Source of the DNA: an uncultured virus (IMG/VR IMGVR_UViG_3300030108_000125)
Taxonomy: Duplodnaviria > Heunggongvirae > Uroviricota > Caudoviricetes
IMG/VR virus record: IMGVR_UViG_3300030108_000125
Coordinates: 1 to 64,000 of that record
DNA length: 64,000 bases
Reading direction: 5' to 3' (one strand)
Of this stretch, positions 8,256 through 27,326 are shown in pieces (the stretch's first letter is position 1; each line of letters starts with the position of its first letter). The notes beneath the pieces were generated by a model that was given only the letters and a program-made list of their open reading frames with translations, was not told the origin of the DNA and did not search any database. Both the position numbers and the translations under genes were made by a program.

Positions 8256-8260
8256 ACGCG

Positions 8261-8665: not shown

Positions 8666-8677
8666 GAAACCCTCCTG

Positions 8678-9226: not shown

Positions 9227-9232
9227 GTGCAT

Positions 9233-9277: not shown

Positions 9278-9299
9278 TAAACGCATTATACATACATCA

Positions 9300-9332
9300 A
9301 AACAAAAAGAAAGGGGCAACCGAAGTTGCCCC
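9300..9332 (-). terminator. Rho-independent terminator after major capsid
   Basis: GGGGCAAC-TTCG-GTTGCCCC followed by TTTCTTTTTG. Confidence 0.85.
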
Positions 9333-9371
9333 AGTTCAGGCATACAGGCAAAGCCTGTCGAGCAGTAGTGT

Positions 9372-10280
9372 TTAGGCTCCGGGCGAACCGAAGATGCCGA
9401 GCGGATCAGAAACACCGAAGCTATAGCGCTCACGTGCTTTGTAACGGCTGTTGCCAGTATCAAAATCAGCGTCCATAGATGTAGCCATCGGGCTACGTGT
9501 AAAGTGTTTTAGACCGTTTGGAACGTCTGTCATAATGAAGAACGCATCAGTATCTGTTAGATAATGGTTGATAGCGTATCCTTCAGGTATGGAGCCGTTG
9601 TTACGAATAGCGTTCAGATCGTTATCCGCAGTTCCTACGCGTCCCTCTGTTTCCAACAGACGTGTTGCAACGAATTGCAAGTTTGGTGGAATGATAAGTT
9701 TACGAGGACGTGCGGCGATCAATAGACCACGTTCATCCGTCCAACCAGCAATCTGAATAACAGCCGCCTCAAGAGAGGTTTCGTTAAGATCAGCAGCTAC
9801 GGCTGGTTCGTTTGAGTTAGTCCCGCCGTTGACCAATGGGTGATCAGTTGCACAAAGCTCCTTACCGTCACCATAAGTCACACTTGAGTCAAAGGCACTG
9901 TTAAGAATAGCAGCGGCTTTAACCTGTTTTGTGTACGCCATAGCACGAGCGAGTGCCTTGGTATAACGAGCAGACAGTGAGTCATACAAGTTATCCTCAA
10001 TAGCTTCCTCAGTAATAGAGAAACCCATTGCCACTGTTTCGTGTGTATAGCGTGCGGTGAATGCTTCCTGTGCATTGTCATATTCGATGGCAGAGCCTTC
10101 GTCTTTGACAGGTGCTGCAGAAAAACCACTCAATTTTGTTTCTTCTTCAAAGGAACGATCCGATGTTTCAGATTCAAAAATTTCGGCGTGTTCTTCACCG
10201 TATTTTGCGTACTCCAATCCGAACAGAGCGTTCAGGCCGGGAAGGAGTTCTTTTAGTAACTGGGCGCGTGAAATAGCCAT
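9372..10280 (-). CDS. Major capsid protein (Mu gpT-like, HK97 fold)
   Basis: MAISRAQLLKELLPGLNALFGLEY..., KLIIPP, RERYSFG motifs; AGGAG RBS; followed by a terminator. Confidence 0.85.
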   Translation of the reverse strand: MAISRAQLLKELLPGLNALFGLEYAKYGEEHAEIFESETSDRSFEEETKLSGFSAAPVKDEGSAIEYDNAQEAFTARYTHETVAMGFSITEEAIEDNLYDSLSARYTKALARAMAYTKQVKAAAILNSAFDSSVTYGDGKELCATDHPLVNGGTNSNEPAVAADLNETSLEAAVIQIAGWTDERGLLIAARPRKLIIPPNLQFVATRLLETEGRVGTADNDLNAIRNNGSIPEGYAINHYLTDTDAFFIMTDVPNGLKHFTRSPMATSMDADFDTGNSRYKARERYSFGVSDPLGIFGSPGA

Positions 10281-10293
10281 AGTTTATAACTCC

Positions 10294-10887
10294 TTATACA
10301 CCAGTAGTGTTGTCGAACGCATGTCCTGCATTCCACTTCACATAAGCTTCGGTAAAGCCACCAGAACTGTTTTTGGTTTCTTGGACCAAATCAACAATGC
10401 GGAACGGCAACGTTGCGGTAGTCGCAGAAGAATCTGAGATACCACAACGGGAGTTACCCGATACAGAATCACCAGTATTATCTACACCAGCAACGTTTGC
10501 TCCGATGTCAGTTATTGCCAAGTCACCAACAGTGGTGCCAGATGAAAGCACAACAGCTTTAAACAGTACGTCTGTTGCGTCACACACATATGCTTCAATG
10601 TCAGAAGCCACGGTGCTTGCAGGATAAGACTGCCTAAATGTTTTTTGCGATGTGCCGGGATCGGTGTAAGATACACCCATAAAGACACCTATCGGTGTCA
10701 TGGCAGCGTCAAACGTATCACGTTCAACAGTGCCTCCGGTAACCAGCTTCACAGCGTCCCCATAGAATATGGCAGTACCATAGTTACTAGCGATTTTGTA
10801 GTGACGTACAGTACCCACGTAAGGAACACCGCTCAACAATTTTACCGGAACAAGCCCATAAGGGCTACTTACTGTAGGATATGCCAT
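10294..10887 (-). CDS. Capsid decoration/minor head protein
   Basis: PYGLVPV..IFYGDAV pattern; immediately upstream of the MCP. Confidence 0.6.
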   Translation of the reverse strand: MAYPTVSSPYGLVPVKLLSGVPYVGTVRHYKIASNYGTAIFYGDAVKLVTGGTVERDTFDAAMTPIGVFMGVSYTDPGTSQKTFRQSYPASTVASDIEAYVCDATDVLFKAVVLSSGTTVGDLAITDIGANVAGVDNTGDSVSGNSRCGISDSSATTATLPFRIVDLVQETKNSSGGFTEAYVKWNAGHAFDNTTGV

Positions 10888-10902
10888 TCTAAGCTCCTAA
10901 GA

Positions 10903-11352
10903 TTAAGTTCCTTTTCCGAATGTCACACGAGACTTTCTCTCGTTAAACAACGGCATGCGAGGGTCGTTCTCGCGCATCAGGTTGTTATCGACAGATTGCA
11001 TCTGACTATCTGTTTGTTGTGTAAAATACTCAGTGCGTTCTTCCACCATTTCTTTTGGAGCCTTACATAACATCAAACCACCAATAACTACGTTATCTCT
11101 AAAACGCTCTTGTTCTACAGTAACCATAGTAATTTCTGGGTGATCTTTTGCTTTGCAGGGTTCCCAACCTTCGCGCAACTTTGATGAGACATTCGTAGCA
11201 TCTGTCTGACCTTGATTGCTAACACGGACCCAACGATACGCATACCCATCTTGGGGAGTAGGAGACGGTAAAGTCTCTGGACGCATCCAAGCTTTCTTAC
11301 GTACTTTCTTTTCGCGGGTCTGTAGCTCACGATCAATTCTATTCTCAGCCAT
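10903..11352 (-). CDS. Head-module hypothetical protein
   Basis: YRWVR..LREGWEP..GGLMLCK; between scaffold and capsid. Confidence 0.7.
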   Translation of the reverse strand: MAENRIDRELQTREKKVRKKAWMRPETLPSPTPQDGYAYRWVRVSNQGQTDATNVSSKLREGWEPCKAKDHPEITMVTVEQERFRDNVVIGGLMLCKAPKEMVEERTEYFTQQTDSQMQSVDNNLMRENDPRMPLFNERKSRVTFGKGT

Positions 11353-12373
11353 CTGCTTTCCTCATGTCTATTGCAACCTGTTTGGCGTATTGTTGAGGGG
11401 TTAACCCCAACCTTTTAGCGATTTGCACTTGGGTCTTGGTAAGTGTCACCTTCTTAGGTGCTGTGCTCCGCGTTGCGGGTGCGACCACATTTGCCTTACG
11501 CTTAGGCTCTTCAGCCTCGGGTTCTGCAGCCTCCTCAAAATTATCTGGGAAGACCTGACGCATACGAGTGTTTATAGTCTCGTAGTATTCATCGCTCTGC
11601 GGGCTTACGCCCTGTTTGACAAGCTTATTATGCAACCCCAACGCTAAACTTGTCATCTCATCGTCAACCCCGAACCACGTATTAGCTTTTTGCCAATCTG
11701 CGGCTCTTTGATCGACCTGTCCTGTTGGAGCGGGTTCTGTATCCGTCTGTACAGGTGTTTCGGTCTCCTGTAAAGACGGCAATTTAAAGTTTGCTAGTTT
11801 ATCAGCCTTTAACTTGGCAGATGTTAGCTTGTCTTGTGCTTCTAATACTGCCTCGGAATCACCAGACTCATATGCTTCTTTATAAGCACGTTTGGCTGCA
11901 TCTGTTTCTATAGTGGCATTTTTCTTAGCCTGTTCTAGCAACGCGGCTTGGTTCTTGTTAACATTACCTTTTAGTCTTTTGTTTTCTTCCATAAGCTGTT
12001 GAGTAACACGTTCAAGTTCTTGACTCTGCCGAACAGCCTCTTCTTTGGCGCGGCGTTCGTCGTGGTAGCCTTTACTGAAATGTTTGATCCGCTTTGCGAC
12101 TTTTTCGGAATAGTCTTCAAGCTCTTCCTCTGTAACATCCTCAGGAGGTTCAGACGGTTTACGATTGCGGTCAGCCTTTGGCGTGTCGTCAACGACCTCA
12201 ACTGCCACCTCGCTGTCATCAGTATCCACCTCGACTTCAGGCTCTGGTCTAGCCTTAGTTTCAACTTTGGTATCCTCACCACTTATATCCACCTCAATAG
12301 CACTAGAAGATTCAACATCTATCTTATCTTCTGTTTCATGTGGAAACTCAAACTCTACTTTTTGAAATGCCAT
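11345..12373 (-). CDS. Putative scaffolding protein
   Basis: Acidic N-terminus, coiled coil, basic C-terminal IAKRLGLT; between portal and MCP. Confidence 0.65.
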   Translation of the reverse strand: MAFQKVEFEFPHETEDKIDVESSSAIEVDISGEDTKVETKARPEPEVEVDTDDSEVAVEVVDDTPKADRNRKPSEPPEDVTEEELEDYSEKVAKRIKHFSKGYHDERRAKEEAVRQSQELERVTQQLMEENKRLKGNVNKNQAALLEQAKKNATIETDAAKRAYKEAYESGDSEAVLEAQDKLTSAKLKADKLANFKLPSLQETETPVQTDTEPAPTGQVDQRAADWQKANTWFGVDDEMTSLALGLHNKLVKQGVSPQSDEYYETINTRMRQVFPDNFEEAAEPEAEEPKRKANVVAPATRSTAPKKVTLTKTQVQIAKRLGLTPQQYAKQVAIDMRKADG

Positions 12374-12375
12374 GC

Positions 12376-12756
12376 CTATACCCTCGTAACGCCACGAGGA
12401 TCAGCCACAACTGCCTCAATCGAATCATCATTCATCAGACGATATTCTAAACCTCCAACAGAAAACCGTGTGCCTGAGTTCATACGAAACAATACGTAAT
12501 CACCTTCTTTACACCACGGTCCATGCGGGAATCTATCTTTATCTCCGTAAGCTTCTGCGCCCATATCAACCACAAGGCCTATAATAGACATAATATGGTC
12601 CATTTGTTTTTCTTTTTCAGTTTTTAAAACGCTTGTCCCTTCGTAATTTTCTTCGGGTTGAGGTAGCGCTATGAGCAATCTATAGCCCACAGGTTTAGGT
12701 AGCTGCAGATCAAAGTCTGCATCATTTAGAGGTACTACTGTTTCAGCCATCGTCAT
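12376..12756 (-). CDS. groES: GroES-like co-chaperonin
   Basis: PVGYRLLI...GLVVDMG...KEGDYVLF...YRLMNDDSIEAVV Cpn10 pattern (start possibly 12750). Confidence 0.8.
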   Translation of the reverse strand: MTMAETVVPLNDADFDLQLPKPVGYRLLIALPQPEENYEGTSVLKTEKEKQMDHIMSIIGLVVDMGAEAYGDKDRFPHGPWCKEGDYVLFRMNSGTRFSVGGLEYRLMNDDSIEAVVADPRGVTRV

Positions 12757-12940
12757 CTTCCATATAACTGCGCGAGAGGTCTTCTATGTATCCTACGCTG
12801 GCTTCGAGACCCCGAATTAAGCCAACGACTTCCTTGTATTGGGCGTAGTCTTTTGCCCCACCTGTACCAAGAAATTCTAATGCAGAAGATTTATCACCTT
12901 CGATCTTTTCTTTAAGCACGTCAAAGACGGTTTTTGCCAT
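12743..12940 (-). CDS. Hypothetical protein
   Basis: 65-aa helical ORF coupled to portal and groES. Confidence 0.7.
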   Translation of the reverse strand: MAKTVFDVLKEKIEGDKSSALEFLGTGGAKDYAQYKEVVGLIRGLEASVGYIEDLSRSYMEDDDG

Positions 12941-12946
12941 ATATTA

Positions 12947-15418
12947 CTAGTTTCCTTTCTTAGGCGTAGGCATAGACTGCAGCATCTTTGCTGCCTCTAA
13001 TCTTGCCTTGTTGCGTTCTACACGCCCGGACTGCTGTAGTTTTACACCTTTTTCTTCGGCTTCTATAGCAACCTCGGCCTGCTCTATTTTAATACGCTCC
13101 GCATCCATCATAGCAGATGTAGCATCCTTAGCTTTTTGCAGGTTAAGCCGTTCTCTTTGCAGAGCACTATCTGCTTGATCTTTAGCTGCTTTACGCTGCT
13201 GCTCTTGCTGTTTGACCTGCAGTTCTGCCTGCTTCATCTGGATTATCGGGTCTTGTGCTTTCTGCTGTGCGGCTCTCTGTGCTGCTTGCTGCTTGTTTGC
13301 TTGAGTCAACTGTTTGCCTGCATCTGCAACCAAACGTGACAGTTGTACTTCTATCTCTTCCGGTAGCTCTTCGTTCGGTGCAGGCAGCGGTGCGCCAAGC
13401 TTCTCTTCTATCTTCTTGCGATATGAGAACCCTAAGTGCTCCGCTATGTGCGCCTGTAGAGACGCCATAATCTGTTTTGCCTGCGGGTTCTGCCCTATTA
13501 GCTGCGCCACCATCGGGTCTTGCATAAACGACATATGTGTACCGATATGTGCATCGTGATCCTGATAGATAAATGCCTTTACAGGCTTGCCCACAAGGGC
13601 ATCCATATTCTCGCTGATAGGGTCTGTAGGTTTCGCGTCATCCTTAGTCGGCACCAATTTATCAGCGTTCTTAACACCTAACACCTCTATCATCTGCCTG
13701 TGTAACTGCGGCAGGTCATATATCTGCGGAGCTTGCTGTGCCATCTGTAACACAGCCTGATACTGCACTACACGTTGTGCCATCGTAGAACTGTTGGGGT
13801 CGCTTACAGGTATTACGTCAACCATACCGTAGTCAGCTTGTCGGGCTGAGACCTCGCCTCGTTGTGGCTGATACGCGTAGTCCTTGGGAGCATACTCAGT
13901 CATTATAGCTTTGAGCAGTTTAAACTCCTGTTTCATAGCGTAATGCACCCTAGCCTGAACAGCAGCCATAGGTTTCAAGGTGCGCTCTAAAAGCGCTAGA
14001 GTGGTTCCAACGGGGGCGTTAGCTGACATATCCGATATGTTTATGTCACTGATAGCGCCTAGCCTACGTCCTTCCTGTGTTATCTGGTTCAGTAGGGCGA
14101 GAAGGGTCTGGCTAGGTTCTTTGTATGGGAGAGGCATGATGTTGTCACGAATGCTACCTGATGGCACATCCACATCTTTAAACTCTCCCGGCTCTATGGG
14201 TATATCGTCTCCCTTGATACGCAACCCACGAGACTTTAAGCCACCGGGCAGATTAGCTAGTGTACCAGCATCGACAAGCTGACGTATCAAGGAAGTCCCT
14301 GTCTTGGCGTAACCGCCAATAATATGTATCAGACCAAGGCCATAAAAACCAAAGCCGGGTACATACGCATAATGCACGAAGTGTTGTCTTTTCAGAGTGA
14401 GGGGATCACCCTCTTCGTAGTTTCTACGGATTGACAGGATAGAACCTGTGCCTCGTTCTATAGTGACCACATACGGACGAGCTATCTCGTCATCGTCATC
14501 CACACCATCTATAACAAGATCAGCGTGTATCTCGTATAGCGAATATCTGTCATCATCCGTCAGAGAGTACCCAGCGTCCTCTGCTTTCTTCTCTTCTATA
14601 TCAGAGTGGTACGGTTTTGGTTCACCTATGTCCAATTCTCTATAGAATCCAGAGGCTTGCAACTTCTTCAACTCATTCTTAGTCTTACGCATGACATGCG
14701 TCACACGCTCTGCAAACTCTATAGTAGACGCGCCATATGGCACGATAACATCTTCAGCAGATATATACAGCGCCATCTGCCGTCCTATATTGGGATCGTA
14801 GTACACTTTTTTAAACGCAGACCCAGCAAGGCCAAGGCTGTACAACATGCGCTCATGCTCTGGACGATACTCTACCATATTCTCGGTGAGTTCGTAATTC
14901 ATATCGGCTTTTACACGCTGGGCAGCTTCAAGCTTCTCTTTTGTTTCTTCGCCAAGAACTTTTACTTTGACCGGACCTGCAGCAGGGAATGTCTCAGACA
15001 TAGTTTCGGCTTGAAATCTGATAGCCGCTTCAGCAAGCACTGTAGAATATACTCCACAAGCTCCTTCCCACGGTGCTGTACGCTCTTCATATCTAAATCC
15101 TAATACATCCAGCCCATCCACATATGTTTCTGTCCACTCTTTGCGGCTGTCTATGTCAGCCTCTACAAGCTCCATTAACGTGCTTGATAATACATTAACG
15201 GTTGTATCATCTAAAAGTTCAGCCAGATTTGCGTTAAAATCAGACAAATCTATCTCAGTACCGGGAATTATGGTTACTTCCATACTCCCATCGGATAGGG
15301 TAACAGCCTCTGGGTCTACAATCTCTATCTCAAGATCAGGCACCTCCATTTCTTCCATGTCGGTTATGCCCTCATCAATCCCAAGCGGAGCAGAATATAG
15401 TCCTTTTTCAATAGCCAT
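12947..15418 (-). CDS. Portal protein (P22-like, long C-terminal coiled coil)
   Basis: 823 aa after terminase; GSAFKKVYYD, GFYGLGL motifs; Q/A/K-rich C-terminal helix. Confidence 0.8.
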   Translation of the reverse strand: MAIEKGLYSAPLGIDEGITDMEEMEVPDLEIEIVDPEAVTLSDGSMEVTIIPGTEIDLSDFNANLAELLDDTTVNVLSSTLMELVEADIDSRKEWTETYVDGLDVLGFRYEERTAPWEGACGVYSTVLAEAAIRFQAETMSETFPAAGPVKVKVLGEETKEKLEAAQRVKADMNYELTENMVEYRPEHERMLYSLGLAGSAFKKVYYDPNIGRQMALYISAEDVIVPYGASTIEFAERVTHVMRKTKNELKKLQASGFYRELDIGEPKPYHSDIEEKKAEDAGYSLTDDDRYSLYEIHADLVIDGVDDDDEIARPYVVTIERGTGSILSIRRNYEEGDPLTLKRQHFVHYAYVPGFGFYGLGLIHIIGGYAKTGTSLIRQLVDAGTLANLPGGLKSRGLRIKGDDIPIEPGEFKDVDVPSGSIRDNIMPLPYKEPSQTLLALLNQITQEGRRLGAISDINISDMSANAPVGTTLALLERTLKPMAAVQARVHYAMKQEFKLLKAIMTEYAPKDYAYQPQRGEVSARQADYGMVDVIPVSDPNSSTMAQRVVQYQAVLQMAQQAPQIYDLPQLHRQMIEVLGVKNADKLVPTKDDAKPTDPISENMDALVGKPVKAFIYQDHDAHIGTHMSFMQDPMVAQLIGQNPQAKQIMASLQAHIAEHLGFSYRKKIEEKLGAPLPAPNEELPEEIEVQLSRLVADAGKQLTQANKQQAAQRAAQQKAQDPIIQMKQAELQVKQQEQQRKAAKDQADSALQRERLNLQKAKDATSAMMDAERIKIEQAEVAIEAEEKGVKLQQSGRVERNKARLEAAKMLQSMPTPKKGN

Positions 15419-17914: not shown

Positions 17915-18059
17915 GGGGAGGTTGGGACTCCCATGGGGGGTGCTTCCTGAAACTGGAAAAATACAAAAGATTTGAGTAAATTAGTATAGTATAGAGTAGC
18001 GCGGAGTCACAGTACACACAGCGGGGGGTGGGGGTGGGGTACCTCTAACGAATTAACGA

Positions 18060-18077
18060 ATCGGGCATCTGCCCGAA
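18060..18077. repeat. Palindromic element copy 1 (ATCGGGCATCTGCCCGAA)
   Basis: Exact TCGGGCA-NN-TGCCCGA. Confidence 0.95.
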
Positions 18078-18123
18078 TAGTAATTGTAAATCTTATTATA
18101 AACTAGGCTAATCTCGCAAGCTA

Positions 18124-18152
18124 TTGTCTAACGTGTTATGTGCTGCTATAAG
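18124..18152 (+). promoter_or_regulatory. Early sigma70-like promoter
   Basis: TTGTCT-N17-TATAAG with extended TGn. Confidence 0.65.
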
Positions 18153-18212
18153 TTGGTTATCGGAACAAGGAAACATGGGGTTTCCAGCCGTATAACTTGA
18201 AAGGTTATTCAA

Positions 18213-18809
18213 ATGACTACTAAAATTGACATCAAAGCAATCCGCAAAGTTGGCGCTGATTTAATCAAGGTTCATGGTCTTGGCGGCGAATTTAAATCAG
18301 ATGATCTAGGCACTTTAGCAAGTGCGCATTCTGGCGAAATGACATCTAGTCAAGCATACGAATACCGCATTACTGAATTGAACGATAAGCCAGAGAATTG
18401 GTTTACACCTAGTCAGGAAGGTAGCACCAATGACAAAGTGTCATGGAGTATCAAGCGCAAAATGGCAATGGTAATATGCCTAACACCTAATGAGGTGGGC
18501 CGCATGGTGGAGACTGAGGGCACCACCAATGAATTGGATAAATTATTCCGCAAGCAAATATCTGATAAGATTAGCGATAAACTAAAAAATATCAGACGCG
18601 GTATGATTAACGCAGACCGCCGTCTCAATCCTGATAAGTACCAGCGCAATATCGTGAAGCGTGACGCACAGGATCGTAGTTTAGATAAACTTGCCGACAT
18701 CCTCAAAATACTTAATGAGGTCAACGAAGGCGATGATAGCATTTACGATATTCCAGAATGCATCATTGCAGCTAAAAACTTAGAAAAGCAGCTTAAGCGT
18801 AAATCTTAA
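18213..18809 (+). CDS. Early hypothetical protein (monocistronic)
   Basis: 198 aa with its own promoter, GAAAGG RBS and terminator. Confidence 0.8.
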   Translation: MTTKIDIKAIRKVGADLIKVHGLGGEFKSDDLGTLASAHSGEMTSSQAYEYRITELNDKPENWFTPSQEGSTNDKVSWSIKRKMAMVICLTPNEVGRMVETEGTTNELDKLFRKQISDKISDKLKNIRRGMINADRRLNPDKYQRNIVKRDAQDRSLDKLADILKILNEVNEGDDSIYDIPECIIAAKNLEKQLKRKS

Positions 18810-18819
18810 CTTGTTACAC

Positions 18820-18852
18820 TGGCCAGCCCTTCACGGGGTTGGCCATTTTTTT
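18820..18852 (+). terminator. Rho-independent terminator
   Basis: TGGCCAGCCC-TTCACG-GGGTTGGCCA + T7. Confidence 0.85.
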
Positions 18853-18877
18853 ATGTCTAGTGAAATGCCAACTAGGC

Positions 18878-18895
18878 ATCGGGCATATGCCCGAT
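18878..18895. repeat. Palindromic element copy 2
   Basis: ATCGGGCATATGCCCGAT. Confidence 0.95.
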
Positions 18896-18914
18896 TGCAC
18901 TTTTACCACACCAC

Positions 18915-19050
18915 TTTGATACCAGTACCCGAATAGCGCCGAGCCTCTGGAATGCAGTGTAAGAAATTATATGCTACGTGGTACAACTTTGTAATCGGGC
19001 AGATGCCCGAATGATATTTGATACCAGTACCCGAATAGCGCCGAGCCTCT
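18915..19050. repeat. Perfect 34-bp direct repeat x2 (18915-18948, 19017-19050)
   Basis: TTTGATACCAGTACCCGAATAGCGCCGAGCCTCT twice, 102-bp period. Confidence 0.95.
18994..19011. repeat. Palindromic element copy 3
   Basis: ATCGGGCAGATGCCCGAA. Confidence 0.95.
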
Positions 19051-19073
19051 TCGCGTGGTTTAAGCAAAGCGTA

Positions 19074-19330
19074 TAAGTTATTGAAATCATTATAATGTTA
19101 GAATGTGAGAAACCGTGTGAGAAAAATTTAGGGGTTAAGTCATTGAAAACAAAGCAATGTGAGAATGTGAGAGTTTTTAAAGAGTATAAGATTTATTTAG
19201 TAGTAGTAGTGTGAGAGAGTTCTTGCGCGTATTCTACGCTTTGCTCTCTACCTTGAAATTTTCTCACATTCTCACATTCGTTTAAAATCAATGACTTACA
19301 CCCACCCATTTTCTCACATTCTCTCACATA
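19074..19330. other. Symmetric iteron/IHF-site element, putative replication origin
   Basis: Nine TGTGAGA heptamers (5 forward, 4 reverse), inverted arms symmetric about 19217, IHF-consensus AATCAATGACTTA at 19286-19298, AT-rich core. Confidence 0.55.
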
Positions 19331-19367
19331 CACTCATATACCGACTTATAATACTTTGTACGTTTTC

Positions 19368-19396
19368 TTGACATAAGGTGTTATATGTGATATAAC
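19368..19396 (+). promoter_or_regulatory. Strong early sigma70-like promoter
   Basis: TTGACA-N17-TATAAC with extended TGn. Confidence 0.8.
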
Positions 19397-19443
19397 CATA
19401 CTAGGCCATGACACTTGGTGACATTGCCTACCAACTGTAACCA

Positions 19444-19461
19444 TTCGGGCATATGCCCGAT
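19444..19461. repeat. Palindromic element copy 4
   Basis: TTCGGGCATATGCCCGAT. Confidence 0.95.
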
Positions 19462-19479
19462 CCAAACTTAGAGGTCACA

Positions 19480-19686
19480 ATGCCAAACAAATGCACATGC
19501 CCATCATGCGGCAACGATTATGACTACCGCCGCCGACAGTTAGGCTACAACTACTGCCTAGACTGCGGCGACATCCGCGCAGAGCAACAACGTCAGTCTT
19601 GGTGTGTCGTGCCACTGCCAAAGCAGGCATACACTCTCGTCACCCGCAAGTCTGACTTGCTGCACCTAAACCAGAAAACACGTTAA
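19480..19686 (+). CDS. Small C4 zinc-finger protein
   Basis: GAGG RBS, ATG 19480; CPSC...CLDC. Confidence 0.75.
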   Translation: MPNKCTCPSCGNDYDYRRRQLGYNYCLDCGDIRAEQQRQSWCVVPLPKQAYTLVTRKSDLLHLNQKTR

Positions 19687-19689
19687 CCA

Positions 19690-19707
19690 TTCGGGCATGT
19701 GCCCGAT
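19690..19707. repeat. Palindromic element copy 5
   Basis: TTCGGGCATGTGCCCGAT. Confidence 0.95.
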
Positions 19708-19726
19708 CAGACAAAAGGAGAAACAA

Positions 19727-20605
19727 ATGTCTGCACCATCAATATCATCCGCTGCTATGCTTGTTAAGTTTAGCGTAACCATACCGACATTCCGCAAGGG
19801 TGACCGTATTGCCACTGAGGAAGTTGCTACCAACAACGGCGCAGATCGCAAGCGCTTCAATCTAACCAAGTCGCTCATTGACAACAAAGAGTTCAAAGCT
19901 CTGAAGACCCATGTCGGTGATGTGCGTAACAACATATACTATGCACGAACCCAGCCGTGGGATGACAAGGGGCCACGCCTCTTGTCCAATGCAAACTACT
20001 TCGACTTTCACGAAAAGATGACCTATGCCATCGACCAAGGCAAAGACCTGTGGGATATATTTCTTGACACGTACGAGCACCAGCGTGACGTGGTTGCTCC
20101 TCGCGAGTTAGGTGATCTGTACGATCCACTGCAATATCCGTCACTGTCTGACTTACAACTGGATGGGTTCCACATGAACCTTGGATATTCAGGCATTGCC
20201 GAGGCTGGCGACTTTCGTTGTGACATCGGCAAGGAGGCTGTGGATTATGTAAGAAGTCAGATGCAGTCTGACAACGAGGCACGGGTTCAGGGTGCGATGA
20301 AAGATTTGTGGCATCAGTTACACGATCAGATACAGCGGTTCCTCAAGAACCTAGCTGTCGACGAAACCACAGGTAAGAAGGGTAAGATCAGCGATGGCAT
20401 CTTTGATCGTCTGGTCGCACTCACTGACATGTTACACACATGCAACTACACAAACGATCCGGACATGGACGCCATGCGCCGTAAACTATCGGTTACTCTG
20501 GATAGTGTCACAACAGATGCTATGCGCAATAGCCCAACTACACGTGAGAAAACACGTGAGAAACTAACCGAGGCACTGAACAGCCTTCCATCATTAGACA
20601 TATAA
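19727..20605 (+). CDS. DUF3150-like helical protein
   Basis: AGGAG RBS, ATG 19727; TQPWDDKGPRLL motif; precedes AAA+ and vWA genes. Confidence 0.5.
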   Translation: MSAPSISSAAMLVKFSVTIPTFRKGDRIATEEVATNNGADRKRFNLTKSLIDNKEFKALKTHVGDVRNNIYYARTQPWDDKGPRLLSNANYFDFHEKMTYAIDQGKDLWDIFLDTYEHQRDVVAPRELGDLYDPLQYPSLSDLQLDGFHMNLGYSGIAEAGDFRCDIGKEAVDYVRSQMQSDNEARVQGAMKDLWHQLHDQIQRFLKNLAVDETTGKKGKISDGIFDRLVALTDMLHTCNYTNDPDMDAMRRKLSVTLDSVTTDAMRNSPTTREKTREKLTEALNSLPSLDI

Positions 20606-20622
20606 TCGGGCAGATGCCCGAA
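20605..20622. repeat. Palindromic element copy 6
   Basis: ATCGGGCAGATGCCCGAA directly before AGGAG RBS. Confidence 0.95.
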
Positions 20623-20633
20623 AGGAGAACAAC

Positions 20634-21728
20634 ATGAATACCGCTAAACAAATGTACGCACTTGACATCCAAGAGACTGCCGACTTGATTACCATGATCG
20701 GCAGAGATCAGACCGTGATTGCCATTGGCAGCATGGGTCAGGGTAAATCAGCCATACTCGACATTGTGGCTAAAGAGTTACCCACACACAAACCGTTCTA
20801 CTTCGATTGCACTACCAAGGTCGATGCTGGCGACATGGGCTTACCCAGAATGAAAGAGGCGCAAGAGAAAGACTTCTTCACGCATGCCGTTGCTGAAGAG
20901 TTGGGCTTTCATCACGATGGCCCGATATGCCTGATGCTTGACGAGATCGGCAAGAACAAGTCGCTGCTTCCTGCCCTGCAACGGATCGCATACGAGAAGA
21001 AGTTTGGTATGCACGAACTGCACCCAGACAGCATTGTCTTTGCTACGACCAACAAGGCAAGCGAGGGTATGGGTGACGTGTTATCTGCACTCATGCGTAA
21101 CAGGACAACAGTCGTCACCATACGAAAGACCACAAATCTCAAGTGGTTGGAGTGGGCTATCGACAATGATATCGAACCTCTGTTGATGGGTTATGTCAAA
21201 GACCATCCAGAGTTGGGTGATGACTTCGAGGATATCAAAGACCCACAAGAAAACTTGAAGATATACCACCCGAAAGACCCATCGCGTCAATCGTTCTGGA
21301 CATGGCGCTCTGGTGAAGCCGCGTCAAAGATACTGAAGAAACGTCACATGATGAGCAATCACATGCTGACTGCGGCACTCATCGGTACTATCGGTGAGCA
21401 AGCGGCGGTGGAGTTGATGACTTTTGTCAACGTGGCGAAGGACATGCCATCTGCTGATGACATCAAGAACGATCCGAAAAACGCCAAGGTGCCAAGCTCT
21501 GCTGCGGCTGTGTGCATGACTGTGTTTCGCACGTTAAGCACAATAGATCGTGATTGGATGGACGCATGGATGACATACATGGACAGGCTCGACACCGAGG
21601 CGCAAGGTCTGTTTGTCAATGGCGCACGATCCGAAAAGTACAGCAAGCGTAACATCGTGATGCAGAACAAAAAGTTCGGTGAGTGGTCACGTCTGAACGG
21701 TTACATGTTCCAAGCGGATAAAGTGTAA
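20634..21728 (+). CDS. AAA+ ATPase (MoxR/AAA_5-like)
   Basis: Walker A GSMGQGKS, Walker B LMLDE, sensor ATTN, Arg finger ALMRNR. Confidence 0.85.
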   Translation: MNTAKQMYALDIQETADLITMIGRDQTVIAIGSMGQGKSAILDIVAKELPTHKPFYFDCTTKVDAGDMGLPRMKEAQEKDFFTHAVAEELGFHHDGPICLMLDEIGKNKSLLPALQRIAYEKKFGMHELHPDSIVFATTNKASEGMGDVLSALMRNRTTVVTIRKTTNLKWLEWAIDNDIEPLLMGYVKDHPELGDDFEDIKDPQENLKIYHPKDPSRQSFWTWRSGEAASKILKKRHMMSNHMLTAALIGTIGEQAAVELMTFVNVAKDMPSADDIKNDPKNAKVPSSAAAVCMTVFRTLSTIDRDWMDAWMTYMDRLDTEAQGLFVNGARSEKYSKRNIVMQNKKFGEWSRLNGYMFQADKV

Positions 21729-21880
21729 TGGATTGGTATCTGATGAAAGAGAACGGTGACACGTTCTGGACGCAATGTGAGAGCCGCGAACAGGCTCTTG
21801 CAGATGCACAGTTGTGGAATGCAGAGTTAGTGCGACAAGCCACCATAGTTGAAACACATTACCTAGAAGAGGAGGAGTGA
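21728..21880 (+). CDS. 50-aa hypothetical protein (MDWYLMKENG...ELVRQATIVETHYLEEEE)
   Basis: Hand-translated; TAATG and TGATG coupling at both ends. Confidence 0.6.
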   Translation: MDWYLMKENGDTFWTQCESREQALADAQLWNAELVRQATIVETHYLEEEE

Positions 21881-22188
21881 TGTTGGCGCACAACTCGACC
21901 AGTTTTGCGAAACGCATCGACAGCAGTGGTAATGTGGGGATTGGTACCGAGTTAGTACGACAAGTTACCATAGGTGAAATACATTACCTAGAAGGAGAAA
22001 CAATGAAATACGAAATCAAAGTCGAAGTAGTGATATGGGGTATAGATGCCGCAAACGTGGATGAGGCTGAGTATATCGCAAGCTCTACTCTGTATACACC
22101 GCGATGGTGGGAAGAGGTGAAGCACAAGATCAACGTTAAACGTGTTATGTCAATCGGGCATCTGCCCGAACGGAAAGAGGAGAAGTAA
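21880..22188 (+). CDS. Chimeric small protein containing a tail-fibre RIDSSGNVGIGT motif (internal start at 22003 possible)
   Basis: GAGGAG RBS; in-frame fibre motif plus a duplicate of the upstream gene's C-terminus. Confidence 0.55.
   Translation: MLAHNSTSFAKRIDSSGNVGIGTELVRQVTIGEIHYLEGETMKYEIKVEVVIWGIDAANVDEAEYIASSTLYTPRWWEEVKHKINVKRVMSIGHLPERKEEK
22153..22170. repeat. Palindromic element copy 7
   Basis: ATCGGGCATCTGCCCGAA before GAGGAG RBS. Confidence 0.95.
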
Positions 22189-23448
22189 ATGTTTCAAGCA
22201 AATATGACATTGGAAGAGCGCATGTCGAGAGCGACAGTCGCTTGGATGAGAAAGGAGCCAGCACTCGCTGGTGTCCTGATGATCGGTGAAACGTATCTGG
22301 AGAAAACTTTTAGAGGCAAAGAGTTCACCGCATGCACAAACGGACGTGACGAATGGTATTGCCGCTCATTCATGGAAGCACTCAACGATCCACAGATACG
22401 GTTCGTCAAGATACATGAGGTGTACCACAAGATGTATCGACACCCGACAACATGGGGTCACTTGGCTAAGATCAACGCACGGCTTGCCAATATTGCGATG
22501 GACCACGTGATTAACAATCAGATCATGGAAGCCTATGGCAAGGATGGGTTCGTTGAGATGCCCGAGAACATTACCTACGGTGACGGTCAGTTCTTCAATG
22601 AATGCTGCTGTGATCCACAGTTTGCAGGGTGGGATACTGCCAAAGTATTCTGGCATCTGTATAAAGAGTTAGGTGAAGATGACGAAGGTGATCCCGGTAA
22701 TAAGGGTCAGAATGGTGACGGTGAAACAGGTCAGATGTTTGACGAGATTGACTTTGACGGCGCTGAAGAACTGACACGCGAAGAAAGGCAGGAGTTGGAG
22801 CGTGAGATTGACGAGGCACTGCGCCAAGGTGCGTTGGTCGCTGGCAAGATGGGCAGTGGTGGCAACCGTGACATTGACGAGTTACTTCAGCCCAAGATTG
22901 ATTGGCGCGAGGCGTTTCGTGAATGGTTCACTGCAACCTGTGCTGGCAGGGATCAGAGTACATGGCGTAGACCTAACAGACGATACCTAGCAAGCGGACA
23001 CTACATGCCATCTCAGATCAGTGAGACCGTTGCGTCTGTGCATTGCAGCAATGACATGTCTGGGTCTATCGGCGATGCCGAGGCTAAGATCATGGTGACA
23101 GAGACGGTCAACATATGTGAGACTGTATTTCCTGACGAGTTACACATAACCTATTGGGATACCGAGGTCTGCGGTTACGAGAAGTATGACAACACCGAGC
23201 TTGACACTGTGGCTGAACGCACGAAACCTGTGGGTGGTGGCGGCACTGACCCGACAGTTGTGCCTGAGTTTCTCAAGGAGAAAGACATAAAGCCAGAGGC
23301 TACGGTTGTCTTAACAGATGGTTACTTCTGGGGTGGCTGGGGTGATTGGGATCATCCAGTGTTGTGGGTTATCATCGACAACAAAGGGGCCAAGCCGCCG
23401 TTTGGTTCTGTAATACACGTTAGCAGAGAGGACTTTATGAATGGCTGA
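22189..23448 (+). CDS. DUF2201-like metallopeptidase-vWA protein
   Basis: HEVYH (HExxH) followed by NIAMD; MIDAS DMSGS, GGGGTD, VLTDG. Confidence 0.85.
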   Translation: MFQANMTLEERMSRATVAWMRKEPALAGVLMIGETYLEKTFRGKEFTACTNGRDEWYCRSFMEALNDPQIRFVKIHEVYHKMYRHPTTWGHLAKINARLANIAMDHVINNQIMEAYGKDGFVEMPENITYGDGQFFNECCCDPQFAGWDTAKVFWHLYKELGEDDEGDPGNKGQNGDGETGQMFDEIDFDGAEELTREERQELEREIDEALRQGALVAGKMGSGGNRDIDELLQPKIDWREAFREWFTATCAGRDQSTWRRPNRRYLASGHYMPSQISETVASVHCSNDMSGSIGDAEAKIMVTETVNICETVFPDELHITYWDTEVCGYEKYDNTELDTVAERTKPVGGGGTDPTVVPEFLKEKDIKPEATVVLTDGYFWGGWGDWDHPVLWVIIDNKGAKPPFGSVIHVSREDFMNG

Positions 23449-23707
23449 CAAAGACACACTGAGAATTTGTGACATAGTTTTTCAGATGAATGACGAGGGT
23501 GCCGCTTGCGGCATCCAATTCTCTGATGAATTTATGGCTCAAAGTGAAGAGTTGCAGGGCGCGATGATCGACGCGATGCAAGCAACCGTGAACAATTTTG
23601 TGGAGCGGTCAGGCATGGTTATGAAAGACGATGACATAGATATGGCAACCCAAGATGCGGCTAACTTCTTAGATAGTTGCGTCAAGAAACAAAGAGGTAA
23701 AATATAA
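23441..23707 (+). CDS. Hypothetical protein
   Basis: Coupled ORF with GAGGA RBS. Confidence 0.65.
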   Translation: MADKDTLRICDIVFQMNDEGAACGIQFSDEFMAQSEELQGAMIDAMQATVNNFVERSGMVMKDDDIDMATQDAANFLDSCVKKQRGKI

Positions 23708-23880
23708 TGAATGATGGGCCATACAAATGTGTTGACGATGAGCCATTGGGTGATTGGCACGACACAGAAAACAAAAGCGGATGCTATTGCGTAGTTTGTC
23801 TCATCTGCGTGAAAGAAGAATACTTTACGGATGGCGTGTGTGGTCGATGCAACTTCGATGATCCATGCACATACACATAA
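23707..23880 (+). CDS. 57-aa Cys-rich peptide
   Basis: Hand-translated MNDGPYKC...CYCVVCLIC...CGRC; TAATG coupling. Confidence 0.55.
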   Translation: MNDGPYKCVDDEPLGDWHDTENKSGCYCVVCLICVKEEYFTDGVCGRCNFDDPCTYT

Positions 23881-23899
23881 CATATGGAGGTAAAATGTA

Positions 23900-23998
23900 A
23901 TGGACGATAAACCAGATTGGCAGGACAAAGTTATCTTTGTGATTATTATCACACTCGCAATCGTGTTAATATTCCTAACCAGTATAGGTGTGATATGA
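23900..23998 (+). CDS. 32-aa single-pass membrane peptide
   Basis: GGAGG RBS; MDDKPDWQDKVIFVIIITLAIVLIFLTSIGVI; ATGA coupling to the next gene. Confidence 0.55.
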   Translation: MDDKPDWQDKVIFVIIITLAIVLIFLTSIGVI

Positions 23999-24264
23999 TT
24001 GAGTTTTTTACCGTGTTGATCCTGACGTATCACATACAAGGTGAAGCGCACCACACTACGGTCCTCTATGACACAGAGGACAGGTGCCAAGAAGCTATGG
24101 ACAGAGGCGTGATGCTGCCTCTGTATAACCAACTATACGATCTGTATGGCAACGATACGATGATGCGTTGTTACGTGACAGAGGAGGTATCTAAATACCC
24201 GATAAGACCAAGACGTAAACCATTAATCGGGCAGATGCCCGAACCAAAAGAGGAGAATAACTAA
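23995..24264 (+). CDS. Hypothetical protein with hydrophobic N-terminus
   Basis: Probable start MIEFFTVLIL at 23995. Confidence 0.6.
   Translation: MIEFFTVLILTYHIQGEAHHTTVLYDTEDRCQEAMDRGVMLPLYNQLYDLYGNDTMMRCYVTEEVSKYPIRPRRKPLIGQMPEPKEENN
24226..24243. repeat. Palindromic element copy 8
   Basis: ATCGGGCAGATGCCCGAA before GAGGAG RBS. Confidence 0.95.
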
Positions 24265-25214
24265 TGGGCTGGGCAAACATAAATCACGAAGTGGTACATA
24301 AAGCTACTAAAGAACACGATAGTATCATTGACACCTACATAACAAACCCTGTAAGTGGCACCCGAAATCAAAACACCATCACTGCTCTGGAGTATGCCAA
24401 GCTTGTGTGTAAGGAGTTACGTGGTGCGTCTTACGCAATGAAAGACCACACGTCGGTGTGGATATACCGTGAAGGTGATATCCATGTCATGGGCTGGGTT
24501 GGTTATGGCGATTGGCAGACAACAAAGACCTCAGAATATCAGTTTGTTGTGTATGCTCCGTTCCACGAAAACCACAAATACCGAGAAGAGGGTATTCAAC
24601 ACCATATGGCTATGTTTAACGACAGAGACAAAGCTATCAAGAAAGCCAAGGCTCTGTTCAGAAGTTACACGGTTGGCGAAAGTGCCTGTGCACTGAATGG
24701 TAAGTCTGCCAGTAAGATCACTGATGTGCAAAGCGTTGCGACTAAAGCGTACAAAGAAGCAGGCAAATATCTGGACATACATATAAGTAGTTACGGCGCA
24801 GGCAAGCACGTATTGATAGACGAGTTCAAAGCATTGTTGGCGTCTGGACATTCGTTCTTACGAGCCGAGGTCGGTATTAATATGAAAGCGTTCTGCGATG
24901 CGTATGATCTGTTCAAGAAGCGTAACGCATCAGAGATACCTATGATGTATGTCGATATGGTCACCGATAGGTTTGGTGACAAGATATACAGATTGGCACG
25001 GCTGAAGAACGGACGACACTACGGCCCGAACCCCTACAGAGAGGTAACAAGTGAGGAGCATTGCCAACAGTCGGATGTTCCTCAGTGGGTTGTGGATCGT
25101 GTGTCTACATTGCAGATCGTTGATGATGGCACCTATGTTGAAGGCGTTGGTTACAAACACTTCGATAACGCGTACACAATTCATGTCGACGAGGTAAATC
25201 CCTTTGTCGATTAA
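24264..25214 (+). CDS. Early hypothetical protein
   Basis: 316-aa ORF with strong RBS. Confidence 0.8.
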   Translation: MGWANINHEVVHKATKEHDSIIDTYITNPVSGTRNQNTITALEYAKLVCKELRGASYAMKDHTSVWIYREGDIHVMGWVGYGDWQTTKTSEYQFVVYAPFHENHKYREEGIQHHMAMFNDRDKAIKKAKALFRSYTVGESACALNGKSASKITDVQSVATKAYKEAGKYLDIHISSYGAGKHVLIDEFKALLASGHSFLRAEVGINMKAFCDAYDLFKKRNASEIPMMYVDMVTDRFGDKIYRLARLKNGRHYGPNPYREVTSEEHCQQSDVPQWVVDRVSTLQIVDDGTYVEGVGYKHFDNAYTIHVDEVNPFVD

Positions 25215-25509
25215 TATGTATGCACCAACCGCAGTGGGAATGATGGAGCATGACATCGCATGCCATGTTGTGATACGTCCTGTATCTAACTATGTTCATA
25301 TACGATGCCTAAAAGGTTTAACACTTGACAATGATATTAGAAAACACTATCTGTCACTTGATGATACCCCTGAGTGGATACGCCATAGAGTTTACGCCTT
25401 GTCAGTTTTAGACCCCGATGAAAACCAGATTGTGGAGAACGTGGGCGTGCGTTCAGCGCCTGATACATTTTGGGTATTTAAAAAATCAATCGGGCAGATG
25501 CCCGAATAA
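25204..25509 (+). CDS. Hypothetical protein
   Basis: PEWIRHRVYALSVL..VENVGVR resembles the C-terminus of the upstream protein (PQWVVDRVSTLQIV..VEGVGYK). Confidence 0.65.
   Translation: MSINMYAPTAVGMMEHDIACHVVIRPVSNYVHIRCLKGLTLDNDIRKHYLSLDDTPEWIRHRVYALSVLDPDENQIVENVGVRSAPDTFWVFKKSIGQMPE
25489..25506. repeat. Palindromic element copy 9
   Basis: ATCGGGCAGATGCCCGAA. Confidence 0.95.
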
Positions 25510-25515
25510 AAAATT

Positions 25516-25555
25516 CACACCACCTCTGATATTATTCGGGGTGGTGTGTTATAAT
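25516..25555 (+). promoter_or_regulatory. 11-bp hairpin fused to an extended -10 (TGtTATAAT)
   Basis: CACACCACCTC...GGGGTGGTGTG then TTATAAT; GAGGAG RBS follows. Confidence 0.5.
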
Positions 25556-25569
25556 GTGAGGAGAATAAT

Positions 25570-26274
25570 ATGGGGGTGTTACCCTGTTATGCCAATGGCA
25601 AACAGACTGCACGTGTGACGTGTGACTGTTGCGGCAAAGAGGTAGTGATTGGTATACCTACCACCAACTATCATAGAAATATGACGCCTAGTCGAAGAGC
25701 TAAAATAGCGGCTGAAGTAAAGACAAGTAAACCAGTTGTCCAAAAAATGAGGTCAGTTGGCTGGGTTGTAAACAAGGCCAAAGTTGTTTGTAATACTTGC
25801 GTCAAAAAAGGTAATGAGGAAAAAATGAACCAGAAAATTAGTGTGAAGAAGGTAGCGTCCACTGTTACGAAAATCGAACCCAACATGAAATCCACTCCTG
25901 CACAACGGCGTGAAATACGTAAGTGGTTAGATGATTTATACGACGTTGACAGGTGTTGTTATAAAGAAAATAACTCTGACCACAGTGTGGCTGATCTATG
26001 TGATGGTAAGGTGTTATGGGGTTGGGTTAAAGAAATCCGAGAAGCCGACTACGGCGAGGGCGGTGGTAATGAAGAAGCTAGCCTGATGGTAAAAGAAGTT
26101 AAGAAGCTGTCTGATGCCATAGATACAGCACTGGTTACCAGTGAGGTAGCACAACAGGATTTTCGTAAAGCCTATGAAGCTAACGCTGCTAAAATGCAGA
26201 AAGCACATGATGGGTTACAGGCACGGCACAAAGAAGTAAATGAACTTATCAAAAAGATAAAGTTAAAGGGATAA
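25570..26274 (+). CDS. Hypothetical protein with CxxC..CxxC and C-terminal coiled coil
   Basis: CDCC...CNTC; GAGGAG RBS. Confidence 0.7.
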   Translation: MGVLPCYANGKQTARVTCDCCGKEVVIGIPTTNYHRNMTPSRRAKIAAEVKTSKPVVQKMRSVGWVVNKAKVVCNTCVKKGNEEKMNQKISVKKVASTVTKIEPNMKSTPAQRREIRKWLDDLYDVDRCCYKENNSDHSVADLCDGKVLWGWVKEIREADYGEGGGNEEASLMVKEVKKLSDAIDTALVTSEVAQQDFRKAYEANAAKMQKAHDGLQARHKEVNELIKKIKLKG

Positions 26275-26275
26275 C

Positions 26276-26569
26276 ATGACACCCGAAGCGAAAGTTAAAA
26301 AGAAAGCGGTACAGATACTCAAAGAGTTGAGCGCCTATTACTTCTACCCTGTTACTGGTGGTTATGGGCGCAGTGGTGTGCCTGATATAATAGTTTGTTA
26401 TAGGGGTTTATTTATTGGTATCGAATGCAAAGCTGGCAAGAATAAACCCACGCCGTTACAAGAAAAGAATATGGAGGACATACACAAGGCAGGTGGCGTT
26501 GCGCTTGTCATCAATGAGGATAACGTATCACGTCTAAGCAGAATACTGTTTGATTTATCGTCCGGTTAG
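26276..26569 (+). CDS. VRR-NUC domain nuclease
   Basis: MTPEAKVK..GVPDII..FIGIECKA..TPLQ..GG pattern. Confidence 0.85.
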   Translation: MTPEAKVKKKAVQILKELSAYYFYPVTGGYGRSGVPDIIVCYRGLFIGIECKAGKNKPTPLQEKNMEDIHKAGGVALVINEDNVSRLSRILFDLSSG

Positions 26570-26584
26570 TTTGGTTCCGAGGCG

Positions 26585-26725
26585 ATGGGGGTAGAGCCGT
26601 GAGAGACCCCTACATTGAAATATCCACGGCAGTAAGAGGTGTGCATCCTTTCGAGAGTACCTCTAGCACATTGATCTTACACTGGTTCGCAGGGTGGCTT
26701 TGGCTGCTCTGCGATACCAGTTTCC
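26585..26725 (+). ncRNA. Candidate structured intergenic RNA
   Basis: H-type pseudoknot plus two long hairpins in a 200-nt intergenic gap. Confidence 0.4.
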
Positions 26726-26734
26726 AAAAATGTA

Positions 26735-26752
26735 ATCGGGCATATGCCCGAA
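26735..26752. repeat. Palindromic element copy 10
   Basis: ATCGGGCATATGCCCGAA before AGGAG RBS. Confidence 0.95.
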
Positions 26753-26771: not shown

Positions 26772-27326
26772 ATGGCTCGTAATAAGAAAACTAAAGAAGA
26801 AAAAATTTGGGCATACAAAGTTAAACATCCAGAAGCATCAAGCTCAGAAATAGCAAAGGCTACCAAAACATCTTATGGCTACGTGTGGAAACTGATGAAA
26901 AAGGTCGGCACCCCAAAAGAAGTTTTAGAGGATGACACCGACTACGAAGCGGAAGCGCACGCACTTGCAGCGGAAGAAGCGGAGCGTGAGGCTAGCGGTA
27001 CGGCAGCGGATTGGGATTTTGAATTAGAGGGCGATGTTCCACGTGAAACAGTTTCGCGCCAGAAGATATTGGATGAGGCACTAAAGAAAATAGAAGGTGA
27101 ACGCCACGAAGAATACGGCGATGCAGCAGAAAACTTTGATCGCATCGCAGGGTATTGGAACGCTCACCTTGGTTTAAATAATTTCATTACACCTCGTGAC
27201 GTGGCGGCTATGATGGTTCTGCTTAAAATATCACGTCTACACGGTGACGGTCCTAAAGATGTTGACACTTATGTTGATATTTGTGGATACGCTGCAATCG
27301 GCGGCGAGATTGCGAGTAGCGATTAA
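26772..27326 (+). CDS. HTH + DUF6378-like fusion protein
   Basis: N-terminal SSSEIAKATKTSYGYVWKL helix-turn-helix; C-terminal R..EYGD..NF.RIA..W..MVLLKISR..DTYVDICGYAA. Confidence 0.7.
   Translation: MARNKKTKEEKIWAYKVKHPEASSSEIAKATKTSYGYVWKLMKKVGTPKEVLEDDTDYEAEAHALAAEEAEREASGTAADWDFELEGDVPRETVSRQKILDEALKKIEGERHEEYGDAAENFDRIAGYWNAHLGLNNFITPRDVAAMMVLLKISRLHGDGPKDVDTYVDICGYAAIGGEIASSD
27035..27050. promoter_or_regulatory. parS: Chromosomal-type parS site
   Basis: TGTTCCACGTGAAACA, exact match to the TGTTNCACGTGAAACA consensus. Confidence 0.75.

Follow-up and report, generated by a model that had tools for sequence, protein, structure and literature searches.

A family-wide array of operator-like palindromes in the early arm of uncultured tailed phages and its candidate binding protein

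The window analyzed here, a stretch of 64,000 nucleotides (positions 1 to 64,000 of IMG/VR record IMGVR_UViG_3300030108_000125), represents most of the 67,528-base record of an uncultured tailed phage. Leftward from about position 18,000 run the terminase, portal, and capsid genes, and the rightward arm carries small early genes together with those for an AAA ATPase, a DUF2201 peptidase/VWA protein, DNA polymerase A, an exonuclease, an SNF2 helicase, a single-stranded DNA-binding protein, and a primase. The closest cultured matches are distant: HTVC023P-like phages by terminase (44–47%) and Rhizobium phage RHph_TM3_14A or KPP25 by polymerase (34–37%). Our subject is a set of ten copies of the palindrome TCGGGCA-NN-TGCCCGA in the early part of this arm (Table 1), together with gene 18213, the first early gene. 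A real, family-wide, operator-like array with a candidate binder from an unnamed protein family is well supported by the comparisons described below.

A pattern scan of the window recovered ten exact 16-mers spanning 18061–26751. An earlier note on this DNA, made by reading the sequence, had reported ten copies with invariant arms and a varying centre, limited to the early arm; this description held, with the true starts lying one base to the right of its numbers. Not one of 100 dinucleotide shuffles of the window contained even a single copy, no additional copy appeared in the window at up to two mismatches, and none appeared across the 67,528-base record at up to one mismatch, confining the array to the early arm. 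On the plus strand, the centre reads GA at four sites, TA at three, TC at two, and TG at one. As the note had also described, six sites (4 to 8 and 10) lie near ribosome-binding sites (RBS), ending 12–21 nt upstream of a start codon with a Shine–Dalgarno word in between, and three fall in gene 3′ ends, giving the peptide tails IGHLPE (gene 21877) and IGQMPE (genes 23995 and 25204). The sequence common to the window copies is the 16–18 bp palindrome only, with no promoter of its own. A sigma-70 promoter scan returned 15 matches versus 16.2 expected, i.e. chance level; the scanner requires a T at position 6, and the promoter that we placed by eye at 18124..18152 is therefore missing from its list.

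The palindrome array is a family-wide trait. At least three copies of one palindrome with 6-bp arms were found in 89 of the 117 loci examined; among the 64 reaching from terS as far as the AAA gene, 61 carried such an array and two more did so with 5-bp arms (63/64), leaving L281 as the sole locus without an array of three or more; these loci are redundant and do not stand for independent genomes. The spellings include TCGGGCA-N2, GTTAGGGA-N1/N2, GTTAGTG-N3/N4, GTTATAC-N3/N5, GTTATAAC-N2, CATCTCA-N1, CCGACG-N3, and others. Two complete relatives hold 13 and 16 sites within 14 and 18 kb. Across the family, 117 of 264 sites have a Shine–Dalgarno word and a start codon within 25 nt downstream, compared with 8.5% of random positions, an enrichment that may only reflect the places where a site is tolerated. 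The cultured RHph_TM3_14A (L370, MN988472.1) carries 37 TTAC-N7/8-GTAA sites in 41.9 kb, versus 0.42 in shuffles, with no annotation of them in the record. Its order matches that of the window (G-tract, site, lone first gene, terminator, AT-rich region), and its candidate reader, EVB41_028, is assigned by position only. The 29–39 kb examined of each of the HTVC023P, DSL-LC04, and KPP25 genomes were array-free, and a tblastn search with the first protein of locus L209 against 50,697 phage records gave no match. Searching 185,579 prokaryote genomes with two peptide patterns only returned a single 3.4-kb contig of a metagenome-assembled genome labelled Alphaproteobacteria. No paper on the arrays of this phage family was found in a literature search outside which most subscription papers and supplements fell.

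Comparison of near-identical phages revealed that the whole array can be exchanged. Locus L178 is 98% identical to the window in the AAA protein, 94% in terL, and 97% in the 292-aa protein encoded after site 5, which we take to be DUF3150-like (it has no Pfam hit). Window-type sites are missing from L178. Its palindrome is GTTAGGGA-NN-TCCCTAAC, present ten times: nine copies correspond in position to window sites (all but site 2), and the tenth lies within its first gene, which spans 5547–6215. The same state was observed on a separate scaffold, L339, with nine copies of this second palindrome, no window-type site, and 97–98% identity to the window in the DUF3150-like and AAA proteins. Near-identity between L178 and the window extends on both sides to a few bases from the palindrome at sites 5, 6, 8, 9, and 10; site 7, whose upstream gene is not the same in the two, keeps it on the downstream side only. 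The clearest coding difference near the array is the first early gene, at 18% identity. Similarly, beyond the DUF3150-like gene L297 and L294 differ in the inner palindrome bases, with the outer GTTA/TAAC and both flanks kept, and some sites in this comparison are lost or imperfect. The zinc-ribbon gene between sites 4 and 5 has the same allele in L185, which bears a window-type array, as in L178, indicating that genes move between array types. In the mixed array of L202 (reverse strand, 7604–13495), five GTAGTG-N3-CACTAC-type sites lie upstream and four GTTAGTC-N3-GACTAAC-type sites downstream of a border in the DUF3150-like gene; this locus may be an intermediate or an assembly chimera. Ordinary recombination with strong selection can explain these site changes, and no enzyme dedicated to them was seen.

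Starting from gene 18213, iterated profile searches identified 91 open reading frames (ORFs; 58 distinct) among 1,923, and a family member is present in 46 of the approximately 50 loci with a terS-to-DUF3150 interval (all except L178, L184, L255, and L281). The family comprises 746 clusters at 50% identity. Not one residue is invariant, which fits a binding protein better than an enzyme, and the median pI is 9.3. The protein has no Pfam or PHROGs match, and only weak single-member hits were obtained among 61 aligned family proteins; sequence comparison with PDB chains gave only coiled-coil noise, and the ESM Atlas a single match at 0.77, below the level of a lead. Among 41 loci, 17 close pairs (AAA identity of at least 87%) were compared. 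In the 11 pairs sharing a palindrome, the first genes are 68–96% identical, whereas in the six pairs with different palindromes they are only 18–43% identical, with terS at 82–99% and the flanking proteins at 72–99%; these six pairs represent four independent switches. The eleven TCGGGCA loci group together as a single clade (support 86) when the tree is built from the first gene and are split when it is built from AAA. Since palindrome and first gene change together across close relatives, the palindromes are likely operators read by the product of that gene, which on this comparative evidence very probably binds them. The earlier note had proposed looking in relatives for a palindrome co-varying with one helix-turn-helix (HTH) gene and had named four gene products to try as binders; of these, 18213 co-varies. 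The HTH parts of 26772 and 32411 do not follow the palindrome, that of 26772 being nearly the same in the window and L178 and that of 32411 in five genomes with four palindromes, and gene 56541 was not found in five array-bearing relatives in a search run without a positive control.

Within the first protein, the signal is concentrated in a single helix. In a test of 49 proteins (1120 pairs below 45% identity, 7 class-less proteins left out), helix 110–131 predicted the palindrome class with an area under the curve (AUC) of 0.79, compared with 0.49–0.64 for four other parts; the pattern had first been noticed in L297 and L298. The first proteins of these two loci are 74% identical, with different inner palindrome bases; their C-terminal third is almost wholly common, and about one quarter of the differences fall in the co-varying helix. 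At position 122, Ser is found in 10 of 11 TAGG-type proteins, and Ala or Gly in 8 of 11 TAGT-type proteins. The AlphaFold model of the gene 18213 protein is all-helical (predicted local distance difference test [pLDDT] 89.9), with a long helix at 107–138, a less certain linker, and a C-terminal helical hairpin. The N-domain, modeled separately (pLDDT 96.3), had no strong fold match and weakly resembles sigma-region-4 HTH folds: 14 of the 50 matches listed were sigma-factor or RNA-polymerase complexes, aligned over model residues ~43–112, for example SigmaE region 4 on DNA (Z 5.0, root-mean-square deviation 2.8, 56 residues aligned). The matches ranged over Z 4.1–5.9 with 46–67 residues aligned, and the co-varying helix lies inside the aligned range. 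Foldseek comparison of the models with PDB and BFVD gave no match at E 0.001 or better, and a VIA fold search with the whole protein was filled by matches to the C-terminal hairpin; such blank family and fold searches do not make the fold new.

We propose that the palindromes are DNA operators bound by a dimer of the first early gene's product, acting as a phage-specific repressor or roadblock of the early operon, and on sequence comparison we give this reading a probability of about 0.52. The first early gene, being small and stand-alone with its own putative promoter and terminator, would be expressed immediately by way of a host sigma-70 promoter. One palindrome arm would be read by each N-terminal domain via the long basic helix, and the C-terminal hairpin, joined by a flexible linker, would dimerize; dimerization is suggested by the symmetry of the site, and the linker would account for arrays that mix 17- and 18-bp sites. 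Dimers bound at about +43 of the main promoter and at gene junctions may then damp or end early transcription. Given binding, repression is its probable main effect, although the effect on transcription is the weakest step of the mechanism. Silencing would extend to any co-infecting phage whose palindrome is spelled alike; such an effect would resemble immunity without requiring integration and would favor spelling switches and rare spellings. It is conceivable, if doubtful, that a large and apparently non-integrating aquatic phage family thus possesses a self/non-self system, in which the reader silences genomes bearing the same palindrome and escape requires a new reader gene followed by the rewriting of about ten dispersed sites through short-patch conversion, the genes between being kept; the window and L178 would then mark a completed switch and L202 one midway.

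Several observations weigh against this proposal. With all 820 pairs included, palindrome class is predicted equally well by the first gene and by the DUF3150-like gene (AUC 0.759 each), and the palindrome changes 16 times on the first-gene tree versus 16–19 times on those of three other genes. The 87% cut-off for close pairs was set after the table had been seen. Loci L264–267 and L268–269 share a palindrome with first genes only 30–33% identical, and conversely, first genes as close as those of L297 and L298 can have different palindromes. No homology to the 18213 family is detectable in the first gene of either L178 or the Rhizobium phage (E 0.45 and 0.42), which makes the reader assignment there positional. 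The first gene is linked to sites 1–3, and part of the co-variation may be block exchange. The best fold score of the N-domain, Z 5.9, is one that helical domains commonly reach. Neither site 1 nor site 9 overlaps its promoter, both being located upstream, and the lack of a detected integrase, resolvase, or ParA leaves no evident lysogenic state for a repressor to keep.

Of the other explanations, the one that fares best, while still unlikely, retains the same protein and sites and assigns them an architectural role, in which the early arm, possibly the leading DNA during entry into the cell, is coated, looped, or shielded by the dimer and labelled as self, while transcription is hardly affected directly. 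Such a role would suit the limitation of the sites to one 9–18 kb block in three complete genomes, a block that opens next to terS with a conserved G-tract, a possible start of packaging, as well as the spread of sites in RHph_TM3_14A, many of them inside genes, and the position of sites on either side of an origin-like region. The enrichment of sites just ahead of gene starts argues against it. Less likely again is that the protein works positively, raising early transcription from its sites as an activator of the sigma-region-4 kind or by recruiting RNA polymerase. The recurrence of sigma-region-4 domains among the N-domain matches and the location of sites 1 and 9 some 60–100 bp upstream of putative start points point this way, but most sites are at gene junctions with no adjoining promoter, site 4 is downstream of the main promoter, and in several relatives (L271, L273, L330, and L201) no site lies upstream of the first gene.

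There is also a slim chance that the sites are bound by a host factor or by some other phage protein, the first gene travelling with them by linkage only. The global co-variation of the first gene, no better than that of the DUF3150-like gene, is in keeping with this, as are the many small early genes besides those compared singly; the conservation of flanking proteins across the six switch pairs, the failure of the 26772 and 32411 HTH parts to track the palindrome, and the concentration of the signal in one helix of the first protein all oppose it. Similarly improbable is that the sites serve primarily as cassette boundaries for gene shuffling, like PeSL elements, or as recombinase targets. 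In three genome pairs compared for insertions, the extra genes in L341 (vs L340) and L357 (vs L358) are flanked by duplicated site-plus-RBS units, and the zinc-ribbon allele shared by L185 and L178 despite their different arrays is of the same kind; however, a second insertion in L341 came without a new site, the first-gene family has no invariant residue, and a passive role would not require the concerted change of all sites. Tyrosine integrase (PF00589) was not detected in any of six records (the window's genome and relatives), nor serine resolvase (PF00239) in any of five, with controls positive in 12–14 of 14 genomes, in agreement with the earlier note, which had recognized no recombinase. 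The recombination-site option raised there survives only as a side role, in the two insertions just described. Its suggestion of a phage centromere or loading-site array is disfavored: a parABS-type centromere combines a ParA ATPase with a ParB-type binder, and neither was found with the window sites (PF13614 in 0 of 5 records under the same controls; no ParB hit among 65 window ORFs).

The note's preference for a dimeric DNA-binding protein over an RNA hairpin gained support insofar as the sites look like DNA targets, scattered along the arm, of a protein with two-fold symmetry, with binding itself suggested by sequence. Sense-strand centres across the family are balanced between reverse-complement partners (GA 21/TC 18, GG 10/CC 8, CA 4/TG 3), and 49 one-mismatch sites from 70 partly redundant arrays show no sense-strand G–U bias (G–U on the sense strand in 12, on the antisense strand in 18, on neither in 19). 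A DNA site is favored because of these two features and because site 1, judged by eye, is upstream of the first putative promoter. RNA hairpins read by the first gene's product as processing, stabilizing, or translation signals are the least likely of all, even though each site can fold as a hairpin of 6 bp with a loop of 4 nt immediately ahead of an RBS (z −0.8 to −3.1, three sites), two sites in L267 show symmetric double changes, and spacer lengths vary by one base within some genomes. The note had taken compensatory stem changes in relatives as the sign of an RNA hairpin; relatives do change both arms symmetrically, but the criterion is misleading, since a palindromic operator that changes specificity also changes both arms symmetrically.

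Lambdoid phages that are otherwise nearly the same likewise exchange a repressor along with its palindromic operators in their immunity regions. There, the operators cluster next to the repressor gene and the whole is transferred as a single block, whereas the genes lying between the scattered window sites stay in place when the sites change. Stoperators of Cluster A mycobacteriophages (PMC6550527, PMC9283540) are likewise many short sites dispersed along a transcribed arm (10 in 8.7 kb here), with a motif and one phage protein that co-vary among relatives, and repression, elongation block, and superinfection immunity are proposed for them as they are, by proposal only, here. Yet they are described there as asymmetric, oriented with transcription, and bound by a monomer with two DNA-binding domains (an HTH and a stoperator domain), in temperate phages with an integrase or parABS; the palindromes of the window family are balanced in both orientations, the gene 18213 protein matches no solved structure of that kind by sequence and has weak, generic fold matches, none of those lysogeny functions was detected in the window phage, and the motifs also jump between near-identical genomes. 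The 17-bp repeats of Cluster O (PMC4351075) share invariant 7-bp inverted arms, a short variable centre, a lack of orientation to transcription, frequent placement near gene starts, and a proposed dimeric binder. They differ in sequence, in their more than 30 copies genome-wide, and in one motif common to all five phages, with no binder identified; the window family has 10 copies in an 8.7-kb early arm, many spellings in one family, and a co-varying candidate binder. The window array would work like Cluster A stoperators, looks like Cluster O repeats, and lacks defining features of both. The resemblance to T4-type PeSL cassettes (PMC2839356) is partial: repeats at the boundaries of non-essential early genes with gene gain or loss between copies (two cases here) are common to both, whereas PeSLs are described as promoter-plus-terminator cassettes and the window family has 16–19 bp palindromes tied to a co-varying protein. 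Taken together, the likely reading of the array is a network of scattered operators whose reader belongs to a new family of phage DNA-binding proteins and putatively represses early transcription.

For the question of how abundant, integrase-less uncultured phages time their early genes and handle co-infecting kin, the present system offers a candidate protein, its sites, and natural specificity variants. A large family without a Pfam or PHROG name, paired with many palindromes, makes the recognition code directly testable, and the pairs could supply orthogonal repressor–operator sets. The concerted replacement of dispersed sites between near-identical genomes bears on how dispersed regulatory networks change specificity, and the similar layout of the cultured RHph_TM3_14A makes bench tests possible.

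Table 1. Palindrome sites and associated features in the early arm (window coordinates; promoters placed by eye).
Feature	Coordinates	Strand	Description
Site 1	18061..18076		centre TC; directly after G-tract, ~48 bp upstream of putative −35 of first early promoter (by eye)
Putative sigma-70 promoter, first early gene	18124..18152	+	TTGTCT-17-TATAAG; partly conserved in L178
First early gene 18213	18213..18809	+	encodes 198 aa, predicted to be helical throughout; probable binder of the sites (long basic helix 107–138 in N-terminal domain, C-terminal helical hairpin 152–194)
Intrinsic-terminator-like hairpin closing first early gene	18820..18845	+	
Site 2	18879..18894		centre TA; after terminator of first early gene
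Site 3	18995..19010		centre GA; precedes origin-like AT-rich region
Putative strong sigma-70 promoter, main early operon	19368..19396	+	TTGACA-17-TATAAC; similar hexamers in L178
Site 4	19445..19460		centre TA; ~+43 of main early promoter, 19 nt ahead of zinc-ribbon gene
Site 5	19691..19706		centre TG; 20 nt ahead of 292-aa DUF3150-like gene
Site 6	20606..20621		centre GA; 12 nt ahead of AAA ATPase gene
Site 7	22154..22169		centre TC; in 3′ end of gene 21877, 19 nt ahead of DUF2201 metallopeptidase/VWA gene
Site 8	24227..24242		centre GA; in 3′ end of gene 23995, 21 nt ahead of gene 24264
Site 9	25490..25505		centre GA; in 3′ end of gene 25204, ~45 bp upstream of TG-TATAAT −10 element at 25550–25555
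Site 10	26736..26751		centre TA; 20 nt ahead of DUF6378 gene, itself ahead of DNA polymerase

Several neighboring features accompany the sites. The G-rich tract at 18023–18039, directly before site 1 and upstream of terS, is conserved in relatives and in RHph_TM3_14A and may mark a genome end or the start of packaging. The AT-rich region 19050–19330, between sites 3 and 4, contains inverted short repeats (TGTGAGAA and AAGTCATTGA words) and coincides with a local minimum of cumulative GC skew; a similar layout is present in L178, L294/L297, and RHph_TM3_14A, and the region is likely a replication origin. A 31-bp direct repeat (18918–18948 and 19020–19050) follows sites 2 and 3, and its GATACCAGT core is seen again ahead of site 10 and in L178, L294, L297, and L281, including where the palindrome differs, and may be a second conserved motif. 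A strong hairpin at 25517–25549 (z −4.9 for 25485–25575), terminator- or PeSL-like and conserved in L178, separates site 9 from the extended −10 element. The DUF3150-like, AAA ATPase, and DUF2201 peptidase/VWA genes form a module (19727–23448) with a site ahead of each of the three, and its ATPase has distant relatives in N4-like phages.

Inside the DUF6378 gene, positions 27035–27050 give a single exact match to the bacterial parS consensus, encoding the peptide VPRET, which reads VSRET in L178, L339, L021, L265, and L270. The match is present in close relatives and in none of the more distant loci scanned; it might load host ParB, in a phage without ParA in our scans. A virion RNA polymerase reading hairpin promoters was considered and set aside, as the two 2,100-aa proteins lack the D-x-D-[GI]-D motif. 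In L283, the 3635-base interval that follows terS holds inserted genes ahead of the first early gene, among them an ORF that looks ThyX-like by eye from its motif. Finally, two long tail-fibre-like genes, at 1–3384 (1,132 aa, running off the record start) and 59276–62224, share at least 55 identical bases, with record position 1 recurring at 60374.

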